The notes beneath the pieces are model-generated. The model did no database searches. It saw nothing but the letters and a program-made list of their open reading frames with translations, and had not been told where the DNA came from. The position numbers and the translations under genes were made by a program. A stretch of DNA of 64,000 nucleotides from Patescibacteria group bacterium. GTDB lineage: Bacteria > Patescibacteriota > Minisyncoccia > Minisyncoccales > PWPS01. Position 1 is the first letter of the stretch. Each line of letters begins with the position of its first letter. The DNA lies in NCBI GenBank assembly GCA_051745165.1, contig JBNJDU010000002.1, positions 5,479 to 69,478 of the forward strand. The letters run 5' to 3'. Shown piece after piece: positions 7,210 to 61,741 of the stretch.

Positions 7210-8934
7210 ATGATTTCAAATAAAAAAGCGGACAAATATTTTATGTATTGTCGTAAATCAAGTGAATCTGAGGATCGACAAATACAATCTATAGACGCAC
7301 AAAAAAGAGAGCTTAAGAAAATAGCAAAGAAGGATAATTTGAATGTAGTGGATATATTAACTGAATCAGCTTCAGCAAAGGAGCCAGGAAGACTAGTATT
7401 TAATAATATGATTAAGAGAATAGAAGATGGAGAAGTTGATGGTTTATTAGTGTGGAAAGTTAATCGATTAGCTAGAAATGCTCGTGATGGAGGAACAGTT
7501 AAGTGGCTTTTACAAGATGGAGTAATAAAGCACATAAAAACATTTTCAGGAAATCATTACCCCGAAGATAATGCTGTTGTTTTATCTGTAGAAATGGGTA
7601 TGTCTGCACAGTACTCAAGAGATTTGAGTACTGACACGAAAAGAGGTTTACGTGAAAGATATGAGAGAGGTTATCCGAACGGACAAGCTCCCATTGGCTA
7701 TAAAAATGATTTAAGTAAAAAGCCTGGTAATAGAGGATGGAAAGTTAATGAAGATCGCTTTCCTTTAGTTAAAAAGCTTTTAAAGTTGTATTTAACAGGA
7801 GATCATTCTGTTAGTAGTCTCAAAAAGATAGCCAATGATAAGTTTAATTTAACTACTCCAGAGAGAAAGAATAAAGGAGGTAAAAAGATTTCTAGATCAT
7901 ACATTCATCATATGCTACAAAATCCAGTGTATGCAGGCTTCTTTCTTGTAAACGGCAGTAAAAGATATGAGTTAAACCCTAAAGTACCTACAATGATAAC
8001 GGAAGAAGAATATAATAAAATTCAAGATATTCTAAGCGATAAAAATAGATCTAGAACTTCCAGTTTAGAAAAAAGCTTTCCTTACAAAGAAGGTGGGAGG
8101 ATGATTTGTGGTTATTGTGGAGGGGTAGTCTCTGCAGAAAGAAAAAGCCAAGTAATTTGTTCTAATTGTAATAAAAAGTTTTCCAGGATAAGTAAAGATA
8201 AGTGCCCGAGCTGTGGAACTGAAATAAGTAAAATGGAGGATCCTACCTTTTTGGATTATAAATACTATCACTGTACTAAAAATAAAGACTCAGAGTGTCC
8301 TAGTCCGTATATAAGAGAAGAAAAGATAAATGAGGAGGTGAGCACTTTCCTTAAGAATAATTTGGAGATATCCCCTTCCTTGCGTGAATGGTGTGTTAAA
8401 AATGTAAAACAACTAGAAAAGGATAAGAGGCAACGGATTAAAAAACAAAAAGATAAATGGGAGGAAGAGTTAAAAGAAAAGGAAGAAGAGTATGACCGTC
8501 TTTTAAGAATGCAATTAAAGGAAGATTTTGATATGGATAAAGAGGATTTTAATAGACTAAAAAACGAAATAAAATCAGAAAAGAATGCTGTTAAGAGTAA
8601 ACTGAAAGAGTTAGAAAGCAATTCTGATAATATAGAAAAGAAACTAAAAAAGACACTTGATATCACTACAGGAGTTTCAAATATATTTAAAAAAGGAACC
8701 AGTGAAGAAAAGAAAGAAGTTTTATCAAAAACTGCTTCGAACTTAACTGTTAAGAAGGATGAAATCCAAATTTCAAGTCAAAACCACTTCTCTATCTTAT
8801 TGGAGGCTCTTTCGGCAGTTAAAGATGAAAACCCCTCATTCGAACCCCGAAATAGTACCCCTTTTAACGGAAAAACCGAGGTTGAAGCCTCGGCTTGTCC
8901 TGTTTTGCTCCGCGGACAGGATTCGAACCTGTGA
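7210..8934 (+). CDS. Large serine recombinase (resolvase/invertase N-terminal catalytic domain YCRKSSESEDRQ, recombinase domain, Zn-ribbon, coiled-coil), i.e. a phage-type integrase
   Basis: The ORF track frame starts at 7165, but the catalytic Ser motif and spacing favour the Met at 7210. The 3' end of the ORF reads through the tRNA-Asn terminator into the tRNA gene (overlap 8908-8934). Confidence 0.85.
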   Translation: MISNKKADKYFMYCRKSSESEDRQIQSIDAQKRELKKIAKKDNLNVVDILTESASAKEPGRLVFNNMIKRIEDGEVDGLLVWKVNRLARNARDGGTVKWLLQDGVIKHIKTFSGNHYPEDNAVVLSVEMGMSAQYSRDLSTDTKRGLRERYERGYPNGQAPIGYKNDLSKKPGNRGWKVNEDRFPLVKKLLKLYLTGDHSVSSLKKIANDKFNLTTPERKNKGGKKISRSYIHHMLQNPVYAGFFLVNGSKRYELNPKVPTMITEEEYNKIQDILSDKNRSRTSSLEKSFPYKEGGRMICGYCGGVVSAERKSQVICSNCNKKFSRISKDKCPSCGTEISKMEDPTFLDYKYYHCTKNKDSECPSPYIREEKINEEVSTFLKNNLEISPSLREWCVKNVKQLEKDKRQRIKKQKDKWEEELKEKEEEYDRLLRMQLKEDFDMDKEDFNRLKNEIKSEKNAVKSKLKELESNSDNIEKKLKKTLDITTGVSNIFKKGTSEEKKEVLSKTASNLTVKKDEIQISSQNHFSILLEALSAVKDENPSFEPRNSTPFNGKTEVEASACPVLLRGQDSNL

Positions 8935-8979
8935 CATCCTCCTTAACAGGGAGGCGTTCTACCGCTGAACTACCGCGGA
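8908..8979 (-). tRNA. tRNA-Asn (anticodon GTT)
   Basis: Cloverleaf folded by hand: acceptor TCCGCGG/CCGCGGA, anticodon loop cTGTTAa, T-loop GGTTCGAATCC. No encoded CCA. A hairpin plus T-run terminator lies 3' of it. Confidence 0.85.
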
Positions 8980-28113: not shown

Positions 28114-29790
28114 ATGTCGAAGAATGAAAAAGAAAAAGTAAAGATAACTCCGCTTGGAGGTTTAGGAGAAGTAGGAAAAAATATGACCCTTCTAGAGTAC
28201 GAAGGGCAAATCCTAATTATCGATATGGGACTTAGCTTCCCGGAAGATGAAAACCCCGGAGTTGACTATATAATTCCTAATATTTCTTACCTAAAAGGTA
28301 GAAAAGATGATATTTTAGGAGTTATATTCACTCATGGTCACTACGATCATATTGGAGCAGTTCCCTACTTTTTAAATAAGTTAGGAAACCCTCCTTTATT
28401 CGCCTCTTCACTAACAATGGGAATTATTGAAAAAAGACAGGACGATTTCCCAAATCAACCAAAGCTAAACAAGACAGTTATTGAAGATGGTTCTAAAATA
28501 GAATTAGGGCCGTTTAAGATTGAAGCCTTTCATCAAAACCACAACATTCCTCAAAATTTAGGGTACTTCATAGAAACTCCAGTTGGAAATATTTTACATA
28601 CTTCTGACTTTAAGTTTGATGAGCATCCTCAAAATGGACCGGCAACAAATTACGAAAAAATTAAAGAATTTGGAAATAGAGGAATTCACCTCATGCTTTC
28701 TGATTCTACCGGTGCAGAAGAAGAAGGTCACTCTTTGTCAGAAAAAACAATTTCGGAAAATATTGAAAAAATATTTCAAAGATCGGATGGTAGAATTATT
28801 ACCGCTACCTTCTCTTCACTAATTAACAGAGTGCAAGATATAATTGAATTGTCTGAAAAGTATGGAAGAAAGGTTATTATTGAAGGGTATGGAATGAAAA
28901 CCAATGTCGAATTGGCAATTAATTTAGGTTTAATTAAAGCAAGTAAAAACACATTTGTTGATCGCAGAAAAGCAGATAGCGTTCCACCGGAAAAAACAAC
29001 TATAATTTGTACTGGTGCACAAGGAGAAGAAAGAGCAGCTTTAATGAGAATCACACAAGGACAACACAGATTCTTTGAGTTGCAAGAGAGAGATACGGTA
29101 GTATTTTCTTCTTCAGTTATTCCCGGAAACGAAAGATCAGTCCAAAATCTTAGAGACGACATTTTAAGACAAGGAGCAGATATTTATCATTACAAAATGA
29201 TGGATATACACGCTAGTGGTCACGGATGTAGAGATGAATTAAGAGAAATGATAGAAATGGTAAAACCTAACTATCTTGTTCCTGTTCATGGACAATACTC
29301 AATGATGGTTAGACACAAGGAGTTAGCTGAAGAGACTAATATTCCGCAAAAAACAATTCTTATAGAAAATGGAGATCCGCTTGAAATGACTTCTCAAAAA
29401 GTATATAAAACAGGTGAGCAAATCAACACCAAACCGGTAATGGTTGATGGATCCGGAGTCGGAGACGTTGGCGGAGTAGTTCTTTACGACAGAAAAGAGC
29501 TTGCCGAAAGTGGAATATTCGTAGTAATTGTTGTGCTAGATAAAAAGACTAAAAAACTACAAAACTCACCAGACATTATATCCAGAGGGTTTGTTTACCT
29601 CAGAGAATCACAAGACTTATTAGCGGAAACAAGAAAAAAGACGAGAAACATTGTTAAAGAAGCCTCTAAATCAAGAAAAACTAGTAACGCAAAGCACATC
29701 AAGAAAGAAATGGAGCAAAAGATCGAAGACTTCCTTTACAGCAAAACTAGAAGAAGACCTATAGTTTTACCGGTAGTTATTGAAGTGTAG
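28114..29790 (+). CDS. rnj: Ribonuclease J (metallo-beta-lactamase/beta-CASP RNase)
   Basis: Zinc-binding motif HGHYDHIGAVPYF and C-terminal domain. Confidence 0.9.
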   Translation: MSKNEKEKVKITPLGGLGEVGKNMTLLEYEGQILIIDMGLSFPEDENPGVDYIIPNISYLKGRKDDILGVIFTHGHYDHIGAVPYFLNKLGNPPLFASSLTMGIIEKRQDDFPNQPKLNKTVIEDGSKIELGPFKIEAFHQNHNIPQNLGYFIETPVGNILHTSDFKFDEHPQNGPATNYEKIKEFGNRGIHLMLSDSTGAEEEGHSLSEKTISENIEKIFQRSDGRIITATFSSLINRVQDIIELSEKYGRKVIIEGYGMKTNVELAINLGLIKASKNTFVDRRKADSVPPEKTTIICTGAQGEERAALMRITQGQHRFFELQERDTVVFSSSVIPGNERSVQNLRDDILRQGADIYHYKMMDIHASGHGCRDELREMIEMVKPNYLVPVHGQYSMMVRHKELAEETNIPQKTILIENGDPLEMTSQKVYKTGEQINTKPVMVDGSGVGDVGGVVLYDRKELAESGIFVVIVVLDKKTKKLQNSPDIISRGFVYLRESQDLLAETRKKTRNIVKEASKSRKTSNAKHIKKEMEQKIEDFLYSKTRRRPIVLPVVIEV

Positions 29791-29796
29791 ATTTAC

Positions 29797-29931
29797 TTAA
29801 TATTACTTCTTAAGAACCACTCCTCAAGAATCGCCAGCGACGATTCGGGAGTTGTGCGCTCGTTGATTGATTTTAGCAAAGCTGAAAATCGTGCTCAATC
29901 AACTCCGCGAACTTCTAAGAAGTAATATTTA
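29797..29931 (-). repeat. Copy A of a ~135-nt conserved structured element (19-bp terminal inverted repeats aatattacttcttaagaa / ttctaagaagtaatatt); candidate ncRNA or MITE
   Basis: Its reverse complement aligns with copy B (61524-61657) and copy C (31111-31221), with covariation in three internal stems. Confidence 0.6.
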
Positions 29932-29993
29932 CGTTCACGGTTAACAAAATTAGTTAATTAAACTATAATTGATAAAAGTTTAACTAAAAAAAT

Positions 29994-31029: not shown

Positions 31030-31063
31030 ACTATTTAAAATATTATCTAATAAACTCTTAAAA

Positions 31064-31108
31064 ATAGGTCGAACCTATCAGAAGTAGTTAAAAATAGGTT
31101 GGACCTAT
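31064..31108. promoter_or_regulatory. Two tandem palindromic sites AAAAATAGGT-N3-ACCTAT, 30 bp apart
   Basis: ATAGGTcgaACCTAT at 31064-31078 and ATAGGTtggACCTAT at 31094-31108; immediately 5' of element copy C. Confidence 0.4.
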
Positions 31109-31110
31109 TC

Positions 31111-31221
31111 TATCGGAGAGGATTTTGCATGGTCTTTTCGTTAGAAAAGAAAATCCTCGAGAGCACAGAGCCCGAATTCCCGCTGGGAATTCTTGAGGCT
31201 CGGTTCTTACAAAGAGGGTAT
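31111..31221 (+). repeat. Copy C of the conserved structured element (5' outer stem absent or replaced; 3' end overlaps the stop region of the convergent phosphohexomutase gene)
   Basis: The 3' 65 nt are ~80% identical to copy B. Hairpins aggatttt...aaaatcct and gaattcccgctgggaattc covary with B and A. Confidence 0.55.
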
Positions 31222-31230
31222 CGAGCGCAC

Positions 31231-32556
31231 TTATGATTCCTTTATCAAAGAAACAAGTTCTTCTGTTTTTTCTTCTAAAAGTTTTTTACTTTCTGCCTCC
31301 AACCTAAGTCTTACTACATCCTCTGTGTTTGATTTTCTTAAATTAAACCACCAGTTATCAAAATCAATATAAACACCGTCTAAATTAATACTAAATCCTT
31401 CCGGAAAAGCTTCTCTCGCCCTTTCTAAAGCCTTATCTTTATCATCTACCTCCATATTTATTTCTTCGCTTTGGTAATAAATCTTAAGCGGTTCAGTTAG
31501 CTCAGAGAGAGTTTTATCTACATTTCCCAAAAAGCTAATCATTTTGATGGCGATAAAAAGCCCATCATCAATGCAGTAATTATCTTTATGCATTATATGA
31601 CCAGAAAGCTCAGCCCCCATTAAACCTCCTTCATTAACTAATTTCTCTTTATAAAAAGGATTTCCTACTCTCATCATCTCTGGAATCCCTCCTGACTCAG
31701 AAACTTTTTCTGGAGTTATTTTTGAAAATCTTAAATCAAAATATACTTTTTTCTCTTTTGATTTTTTTAATTCTTTTTGAGCTAAAAGGCTAATGATTAA
31801 ATCTGGATAAACAATCTCTCCTTTTTCATCTACAAAAAAGGCTCTATCTCCATCCCCATCAAAAAACACACCTAAATCTGCTTTTTCTTCTTTCACTTTA
31901 TTGATAAGCTCTTCCATATTTTTGGGTTCTGGATTCGGTAAGTGATTAGGAAAAGCAGGATCTAAATCTTCATATAAGCTAACTACTTCTGCTTTAATAT
32001 TTTTAAATACTTCCTTGCCAGTTACAGAGGCAACACCATTTCCATAGTCGACTACTACTTTCAAGTCTTCTTTATGATCAACAAACGAGAGAATATGCGA
32101 AATATAATCTGGTAATGGATCTTTCTTCTCCACACTCCCATTACCTTTTTTAAACTTTTCTTTTTTAATTAGGTTCTTTATCTTTTTTATTCCTTTCCCA
32201 TACACTTGCAACCCATTTTCTTTAATTAGCTTTAACCCATTATATTCCGGTGGATTATGAGAAGCAGTTACCATTACTCCTCCGGAATGACTGTACTTAC
32301 AAACTGCGAAGTTTAAAAGCGGGGTTGTAGCAACTCCGATGTCAAAAACAGTAGCTCCAGAATCTATCAATCCCCTTTTAAGCTCTTTGAAAAGTGCGGG
32401 AGAAGTTTTTCGAGCATCTCTCCCAACTACAATTTCCGGATTTTCTTCATCAAGAAAAGAAACAAACCCCCTTCCTACTAAATAGGCAGTTTCTTTGTCT
32501 AATTCTTCTGGAGATAAGCCCCTTATATCGTATGTTTTAAATATTTTATCCTCCAT
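31231..32556 (-). CDS. Phosphomannomutase/phosphoglucomutase (alpha-D-phosphohexomutase family)
   Basis: Active-site TASHNPPEYNG, metal-binding DGDGDR, sugar-binding motifs. Confidence 0.85.
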   Translation of the reverse strand: MEDKIFKTYDIRGLSPEELDKETAYLVGRGFVSFLDEENPEIVVGRDARKTSPALFKELKRGLIDSGATVFDIGVATTPLLNFAVCKYSHSGGVMVTASHNPPEYNGLKLIKENGLQVYGKGIKKIKNLIKKEKFKKGNGSVEKKDPLPDYISHILSFVDHKEDLKVVVDYGNGVASVTGKEVFKNIKAEVVSLYEDLDPAFPNHLPNPEPKNMEELINKVKEEKADLGVFFDGDGDRAFFVDEKGEIVYPDLIISLLAQKELKKSKEKKVYFDLRFSKITPEKVSESGGIPEMMRVGNPFYKEKLVNEGGLMGAELSGHIMHKDNYCIDDGLFIAIKMISFLGNVDKTLSELTEPLKIYYQSEEINMEVDDKDKALERAREAFPEGFSINLDGVYIDFDNWWFNLRKSNTEDVVRLRLEAESKKLLEEKTEELVSLIKES

Positions 32557-61470: not shown

Positions 61471-61523
61471 AAGTTATATTATGTTAAAATTAACTACTTT
61501 ACGAATGCCTTTCCTTAAAATGA

Positions 61524-61657
61524 AAATACCCTCTTTGAAGAAGTCCGCGGAGCTGATTTAGCAAGGTTTTTGGCCTTGCCAAAATAAATCAGCGAGCGAA
61601 CAACCTCCGAATCACCGCTGGTGATTCTTGAGAGGTGTTTCTTCAAAAGAGGGTATT
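61524..61657 (+). repeat. Copy B of the conserved ~135-nt structured element (outer stem ataccctctttgaagaag / cttcaaaagagggtat; inner hairpins ctgatttagcaagg..ccttgc..taaatcag and gaatcaccgctggtgattc); candidate ncRNA or MITE
   Basis: Complete copy. Homologous to A (reverse complement) and C, with compensatory substitutions. It abuts the tRNA-Glu 3' end (10 nt away). Confidence 0.6.
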
Positions 61658-61666
61658 GAATGAATG

Positions 61667-61741
61667 TGACCCCGACGAGATTTGAACTCGTGTTACTAGG
61701 ATGAAAACCTAGCGTCCTGGGCCAAGCTAGACGACGGGGCC
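61667..61741 (-). tRNA. tRNA-Glu (anticodon TTC)
   Basis: Hand fold: acceptor GGCCCCG, anticodon loop tTTTCAt, T-loop GAGTTCAAATCTC. Confidence 0.8.

Follow-up and report, generated by a model that had tools for sequence, protein, structure and literature searches.

A recurrent non-coding element with a covarying, predicted three-way-junction fold adjoins convergent gene ends in Nealsonbacteria-like Parcubacteria

The 64-kb stretch of contig JBNJDU010000002.1 analysed here (the window, 64,000 nt in all), from a Patescibacteria group bacterium, contains exactly three copies of a non-coding, structured element whose conserved unit measures roughly 150-165 nt. Copy B (61519-61665, +) is complete and abuts the 3' end of a tRNA-Glu(UUC) gene without an encoded CCA (61666-61741, -), starting right after the discriminator base plus a C. 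Copy A (29789-29935, -) is likewise complete, and its tail ends at the TAG stop codon of the gene for RNase J (28114-29790, +), the stop lying at offset +2 of the model match. Copy C (31109-31232, +) is truncated at its 5' side; its tail, CGAGCGCAC, runs into the TAA stop codon of the phosphomannomutase gene (31231-32556, -). Besides the window, the analysis covered fetched loci of relatives (labelled L001-L034), and the element strand is throughout the strand as written in the original prediction, which had been made from the letters of the window alone. That prediction described three homologous loci in the window, and this was borne out: a degenerate 25-mer pattern taken from hairpin 2, CGAATYNYCGCTGGNRATTCTTGAG, has three exact matches in the window, with 0 expected and none in shuffled sequence, and a covariance model (R1), run with filters off, scores 169.5 bits for B, 151.8 bits for A and 112.8 bits for C, the next match in the window reaching 14 bits. 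Comparison of these sequences with the copies of relatives establishes an element family that is real and previously undescribed, whose fold is under constraint and which is, or was, mobile.

The predicted fold, obtained with RNAalifold and pair counting, is a three-way junction of 52 pairs closed by a 17-bp outer stem, P1. The first arm of the junction consists of the helix P1b, a GGA/GA loop, the 9-bp helix P2a, a conserved 5' bulge of 6 nt (GCAYGG) and P2b, a strongly covarying helix of about 7 bp that reads, for example, TTTCAGC/GCTGAAA, CTTTCCGC/GCGGAAAG or TTTTGGT/ACCAAAA. The second arm consists of P3 (5 bp), an internal loop with C opposite UUGA, and P4 (8 bp), which has an invariant basal GAAT/ATTC and a GCU loop. 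Across 19 copies and the 52 pairs, 94.9% of 919 cells are canonical, and two-sided changes are found in 41 of the 52 pairs. The covariation score of these copies is 0.513, and 0 of 500 shuffles reach the observed values; control registers slid by 1-3 columns are at most 55.9% paired and score at most 0.134, the limit being 0.128 in the comparison over the 19 copies. The stems drift by compensatory change and the loops and bulges stay fixed, the unpaired columns being slightly more conserved than the paired ones (0.80 vs 0.75) and the distal part of P1 being the most variable portion of the element.

The stems listed in the original prediction, that is ctgattta/taaatcag and its counterparts, hairpin 2, the helix bracketing it and the outer stem of copies A and B, are all present and covary. 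Some of its details gave way. The sub-hairpin with an AAAA bulge that it placed inside hairpin 1 (GCAAGG/CCTTGC) occurs in copy B only, and what is supported at that position is the GCAYGG bulge with P2b. Likewise, the segments tcCGCGGAG and CGAGcG, which it took to be single-stranded, pair with each other in P1b, an additional helix of GTYCKC with GMGNAC that leaves the GGA/GA internal loop. In this helix, the copies have G-C (9) or U-A (8) at column pair 30-89, U-A (10) or C-G (6) at column pair 27-92, and G-C (11) or A-U (5) at column pair 26-93. As P1b pairs the supposedly single-stranded junctions, almost all of the element is paired, in a tight three-way junction. The proposed length of about 135 nt did not hold: conservation also covers a box on the 5' side, A(A/G)CGAAG, and a tail on the 3' side, YCGAGYGCAnTTA, which make the unit longer. 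Copy C is without the 5' outer arm.

As to which strand folds, P1 has 20 G.U cells against 3 A.C cells when read on the element strand, and only on that strand does the GGA/GA loop correspond to a motif familiar from RNA or single strands. The excess of G.U in P1 and this loop favour the element strand as the folding strand, either as RNA or as single-stranded DNA. GGA opposite GA allows tandem G.A pairs, yet the bulge is of 1 nt and not 3, and the likeness to a kink-turn is one of resemblance only. Protein coding was considered and rejected, as the element has no start codon or conserved frame and its stems covary.

Compared with shuffled sequence, all three window copies have a far more stable fold, whichever strand is taken, and the z values are -8.7 (B), -5.7 (A) and -2.9 (C). 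Copy B opens with the 5' box AATGAAA. Its P1 pairs 61526-61542 with 61639-61656 and its P1b pairs 61543-61548 with 61596-61601, followed by the GGA/GA loop; P2a (61552-61560 with 61585-61593), the bulge (61561-61567), P2b (61568-61584), the P3-P4 arm (61603-61636) and the tail (61657-61665) complete it, all on the plus strand. On the minus strand, copy A has P1 at 29913-29928 with 29800-29816, P1b at 29907-29912 with 29854-29859, P2a at 29895-29903 with 29862-29870, P2b at 29871-29887 and the P3-P4 arm at 29819-29852. Copy C, again on the plus strand, has no 5' arm of P1 and begins with the P1b/junction segment (31109-31117); P2a (31118-31126 with 31150-31158), P2b (31134-31149) and the P3-P4 arm (31168-31201) follow, and then an orphan 3' arm of P1 (31204-31221), 12 of the 17 P1 pairs being broken. 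The place of the absent 5' outer arm is taken by two tandem small hairpins, AAATAGGTYGRACCTAT (31062-31108, +), a motif that neither the rest of the window nor any fetched locus contains.

A promoter-like site of trpS, TTAACA-17-TATAAT (29941-29969, +), closely flanks copy A on its 5' side; it is near-consensus and belongs to the context, not to the element. In relatives without the element, TATAAT stands 5-8 nt past the RNase J stop codon, so that the -35 region differs between filled and empty sites. Elsewhere in the window, the 3' end of tRNA-Asn (8907-8979), GUCCGCGGAG, shares 10 identical nt with the segment of copy B that spans P1b and the GGA loop; this match is probably due to chance, given that other subtypes of the element differ at that segment.

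No known RNA family accounts for these copies, as had been proposed. At the gathering threshold, Rfam 15 reports only seven tRNAs in the window, and when the E-value limit is relaxed for copy B and for L028, the strongest matches other than tRNAs reach 13-28 bits, far below gathering. Strong drift of the sequence with a kept structure, together with the absence of an Rfam match, is why the description as a novel structured element stands. No comparable structured repeat or non-coding RNA was found in Rfam or by full-text literature searches on Patescibacteria, or candidate phyla radiation (CPR) bacteria. A scan of a genome collection with CGAATNNNCGCTGGNNATTCTTGAG returned 7 true copies, in metagenome-assembled genomes labelled Nealsonbacteria or Saccharibacteria, besides 3 chance matches, and a relaxed pattern added 5 more loci in metagenomes. 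Viral contigs scanned with the relaxed pattern contain no copies, and a BLAST search against phages and plasmids gave none. Model R1 found extra copies in the fetched loci, more divergent or partial. Together, the pattern scans and the covariance-model search, the latter a step the original prediction had outlined, gave about 20 distinct copies in related CPR genomes, the window having 3. Numerous copies sit at contig ends, as many do in CAYWPY01, with assembly breaks inside them. All the copies found come from a small clade of Parcubacteria (Nealsonbacteria-like CPR bacteria).

Nearly all copies end, at their 3' side, about 10 nt short of a convergent gene's stop codon or tRNA end. This rule sharpens the original account of the genomic context, in which the neighbours were named but imprecisely. 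In 9 copies, the model match overlaps at its 3' end the stop codon of a long open reading frame on the opposite strand (94-723 codons); the offset is +2 or +4 in 8 of them and +12, inside the tail, in L009. These frames encode RNase J, phosphomannomutase, a GatC-like protein (twice), MreB, topoisomerase I, a ZIP-like transporter, an unidentified protein (L001) and a multi-pass membrane protein (L009); for all but RNase J and phosphomannomutase, the names were read from the translations, not from a database. The 3' end of tRNA-Glu is abutted by copies in the window, L016, L027 and L028, further copies in L017 and L028 stand beside 22-nt fragments of the tRNA-Glu 3' end, and a copy at L033:829-981 abuts a pilin-like gene. 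The neighbours are housekeeping genes (RNase J, trpS, pmm, tRNA-Glu, gatC, mreB, topA, rpsI) in conserved synteny. There are two exceptions: the copy in L007 is separated from rpsI by 48 nt that include a terminator, and that in L008 is co-directional with ybeY and lies 270 nt upstream of it.

Given the fixed orientation and the distance of about 10 nt to the gene end, the transcript of the neighbouring gene enters or runs through the complement of the element. On the element strand itself, the flanks of the copies have no conserved sigma-70-type promoter upstream and no terminator downstream, and a free-standing small RNA gene is thus not supported. A promoter-like match inside copy A (TTGAGC-17-TAAAAT) was set aside, as it is not conserved in other subtypes.

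The evidence for mobility comes from orthologous regions, which were collected through TrpS and TsaD homologues, and from the relationships among copies. The A site, between the genes for RNase J and TrpS, is filled in the window and in L026 (TrpS 85% identical) and has shrunk to 35-69 nt in L018, L021 and L023-25. The C site measures 6 nt in L018 and is a plain bidirectional terminator in L023. The B site is filled in the window, L016, L027 and L028 and empty in L029, L030/31 and L033/34. A second copy, itself complete, is nested in the L026 orthologue of copy A. In seven loci (L001, L007, L011, L013, L016, L017, L028), a 3'-truncated copy of a different subtype lies upstream of a complete copy; in such arrays only the gene-proximal copy is complete, and the truncation breakpoints fall in the bulge, directly after GCAY, in five or six cases and in the GGA loop in two. 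The closest relatives of the window copies are found in another genome at a different locus (B with L017, 86%; C with L009, 90%; A with L005, 78%), and the window copies are 57-71% identical among themselves. Members of a subfamily also occur at non-syntenic sites across genomes.

Some smaller observations accompany these copies. A mini-copy of 57 nt, internally deleted and found at L017:8244-8300 and identically at L010:3973-4029, consists only of the outer stem, a CTCGGAG box and the tail; its existence indicates that deletion derivatives do arise. A separate family of short repeats (for example GTCATTCCCGCGAAAGCGGGAATC, TTTTCGAAGRGATTC and CAGTCAAGCTGGGAATGAC) fills enlarged intergenic gaps beside the element in several relatives, at L016:1848-2100, L021:10990-11260, L026:6560-6800 and L028:8660-8930.

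The tRNA-Glu site allows the filled and empty states to be compared in most detail. At empty B sites, the tRNA gene has an encoded CCA, followed by 13 nt and then a canonical terminator of the form A(T/C)ACCTC(C)-loop-(G)GAGGT(A/G)T with a T run. At filled B sites there is no CCA, the discriminator base and a C are followed at once by the complement of the element, and the outer stem, ATACCCTC...GAGGGTAT, with a T-rich box occupies the position of the terminator. This arrangement suggests that the element replaces, or originated in, a terminator hairpin at the tRNA-Glu site. The tRNA-Glu gene measures 76 nt, with no encoded CCA, where the element is present (window 61666-61741) and 78 nt, with CCA, where it is absent (L029:9865-9942, L030:2619-2696, L033:5822-5899). 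That the distal outer stem is a captured host terminator was rejected as a general rule, as a stem of the type ATAYCCYC/GRGGRTAT occurs at many unrelated loci, which implies that the stem now travels with the element; a captured-terminator origin is possible for the tRNA-Glu site alone. By hand count, the 10 nt after P1 on the complementary strand include 4-7 T residues, vs 8-9 at the terminators of empty sites. A simple terminator scan makes no call on the element because its loop limit is 3-8 nt.

A conserved non-coding stretch of about 470 nt (L028:9197-9690 and L017:8818-8956) has on each side a 22-nt fragment of the tRNA-Glu 3' end together with a copy of the element. The stretch has no match in Rfam and resembles what would be left of a small island that had integrated into tRNA-Glu.

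The orthologous copies at the B site share 75-93% identity, and some of their differences are compensatory changes in P1, P2b and P3. They lie beside tsaD, whose four-fold degenerate sites are 38-41% identical among L016, L027 and L028 and hence saturated. The TsaD protein encoded in the window is 100% identical to NCBI protein MGM0438986.1. Copies conserved beside saturated sites point either to purifying selection in place or to renewal by copying.

We tentatively favour the reading that the element is a structure-constrained, non-autonomous mobile element which is copied by an enzyme recognising the folded element strand, and whose complement serves as a 3'-end hairpin. On this account, a trans-acting enzyme would copy the element to new sites and would recognise the folded single strand rather than a terminal sequence, by analogy with REP sequences and RAYT, the ends of IS200/IS605 elements and integron attC sites. 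The conserved loops GCAYGG, GGA/GA, CGCUGG and GAAT/ATTC would be the contact points of the enzyme. On the complement, the closing stem and a T-rich box (of the type TTTCGTTCTG) would take the part of the plain intrinsic terminator found at empty orthologous sites, and the host may keep copies as 3'-end hairpins.

Several observations weigh against this account. Neither the window nor the surroundings of any copy in the fetched loci include a transposase, integrase or reverse transcriptase, which leaves the trans-acting enzyme purely hypothetical, and the copies have no conserved terminal inverted repeat, nor is there an insertion sequence element in the window or the fetched loci. Target-site duplications, which the original prediction had named as a sign of an origin as a miniature inverted-repeat transposable element (MITE), were looked for and none was seen, the best 7-mer flank match averaging 4.6 within the same copy vs 4.75 between different copies; an apparent duplication in the flanks of copy B (AATGAA on both sides) was rejected, as same-copy flanks are no more alike. 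The close relatives covered include no precise pair of an empty and a filled site, and the "empty" A site of L018 retains 11 nt identical to the outer arm of copy A, so some absences may be deletions and not ancestral states. The degree to which orthologous copies are conserved, well beyond that of neutral sites, suits a host function better than it does a purely selfish element. The inner helices, with 11 G.U and 13 A.C cells, give no strand preference. On the complementary strand P1 would have A.C mismatches, and the T-rich box behind it is interrupted (CTTCGCTT in many copies), which makes termination doubtful.

The conservation just mentioned would be expected if the element worked for its host as a cis-acting RNA module, formed by the complement at the 3' end of the upstream gene's transcript, where it could act as a terminator, a 3'-end protector or a processing signal, and duplicated to several genes. 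At about 10 nt from a stop codon or tRNA end, the element must be entered by the neighbour's transcript, empty B sites have a plain terminator with a similar stem at the same position, orthologous copies are kept with compensatory changes far above the level of neutral sites, and a T-rich box follows P1 on the complementary strand. Nevertheless, we regard such a module as rather unlikely. On the complementary strand the A.C mismatches of P1 amount to 20 cells, vs 3, the GGA/GA loop turns into UCC/UC, and the U-tract is weak in many copies (CUUCGCUU); moreover, the copy in L008 points the same way as the neighbouring gene and is distant from a gene end, and a module alone does not explain nested or truncated copies. 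The preference for the element strand in P1, with its tolerance of G.U, and the tandem G.A-type loop would instead suit structured small RNAs made from that strand, either free-standing or forming the structured 5' part of antisense RNAs that extend into the convergent gene, and so would the strong covariation, the conserved unpaired nucleotides and the subfamilies that are conserved across genomes like paralogous genes. Such RNAs nonetheless seem unlikely: upstream of the copies there is no conserved promoter but variable sequence or a truncated older copy, no terminator follows the tail, all genes in L013 are on the other strand, and non-syntenic positions, nesting and truncation are unusual for small RNA genes.

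The element could also be a site for a site-specific recombinase, whether similar to an integron attC or the att site of an island targeting tRNA-Glu. Such a site would agree with the position behind an open reading frame, folding of the antisense strand, preservation of structure over sequence and an extrahelical base in a long stem, and in L017 and L028 the element is duplicated with the 22-nt tRNA-Glu 3' fragment around the stretch of about 470 nt. It is nevertheless very unlikely, as the sequences, read directly, do not have RYYYAAC/GTTRRRY boxes at the stem ends, the neighbours are core genes in conserved synteny and not cassettes, and there is neither an integrase nearby nor an array of co-oriented cassettes. 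The original prediction had offered a functional structured RNA or a MITE- or REP-like DNA element; signs of mobility are indeed plentiful (nesting, arrays, presence and absence, non-synteny), whereas the classical hallmarks of a MITE are wanting, the terminal stem being the most variable part. An ordinary, decaying MITE, or chance similarity, with an unconstrained structure could draw on the multiple copies, their presence or absence between related genomes, the intergenic location and the long terminal inverted stem. This explanation is contradicted by the data and highly improbable: compensatory changes affect 41 of 52 pairs, slid and shuffled controls fail, orthologous copies remain 75-93% identical beside saturated four-fold sites, and target sites are not duplicated.

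On a bolder reading, the element would be a new class of structured RNA, a three-way junction having a loop of tandem G.A type and the invariant loops GCAYGG and CGCUGG, itself mobile and installed precisely at the 3' boundaries of protein-coding and tRNA genes. We consider this class improbable as well. Through an RNA or single-strand intermediate, the portion of a resident copy nearest to the gene might be replaced; this would account for the arrays in which only the gene-adjacent copy is complete. If it proved true, a mobile RNA class of this kind would represent structure-guided targeting of gene ends, which is not known from described bacterial elements. A conserved element that is mobile and yet fixed to exact 3' gene boundaries raises the question of what marks a gene end, at a stop codon or a tRNA discriminator, as a target. 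It may also be asked whether such elements are recruited by streamlined genomes as 3'-end signals; the genomes of CPR bacteria are tiny and repeat-poor. In practical terms, the covariance model provides a marker for the clade, and the element is a candidate ligand for a nucleic-acid-binding enzyme.

Among known systems, the element resembles, in observed or proposed traits, REP sequences and BIMEs, REPINs (mobilised by RAYT, a Y1 HUH transposase) and palindromes derived from IS200/IS605: these are non-coding, intergenic and frequently located after the 3' ends of genes, recognition is of the folded single strand, compensatory change keeps their hairpins, and they are mobilised in trans without target-site duplication. 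REPs, however, are simple palindromes of 20-40 nt with a GTAG-type head, whereas the element is a three-way junction of about 150 nt that has several invariant loops and is strictly fixed in its orientation and in its distance of 10 nt from the gene end, and no gene for RAYT or TnpA is present in the fetched loci. Integron attC sites, such as the VCRs of Vibrio, resemble it in lying directly after an open reading frame, folding on the antisense strand, keeping structure over sequence, and having an extrahelical base and a branched distal part; the element differs in being without R''/R' core boxes, cassette arrays and an integrase, and its neighbours are syntenic housekeeping genes and a tRNA. 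ERIC/IRU, the pneumococcal BOX and RUP elements and the Correia elements of Neisseria are similar in size (100-150 nt), are multi-copy, are co-transcribed with their neighbours and have stable hairpins able to affect mRNA ends, but their terminal repeats are conserved, they often have TA duplications and they occur in both orientations, whereas in the element the termini are most variable and orientation and position are fixed. Intrinsic (Rho-independent) terminators share the stem with a T-rich stretch, the strand of the neighbouring gene and the position seen at empty sites; in the element, by contrast, about 100 nt of conserved structure stand in the place of the "loop", the T-tract has interruptions and, on that strand, A.C mismatches occur in the stem. 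Since it departs from REPs and REPINs, attC sites and the ERIC and BOX families in the defining features examined, the element is placed, outside any named family, among the structure-dependent interspersed elements.
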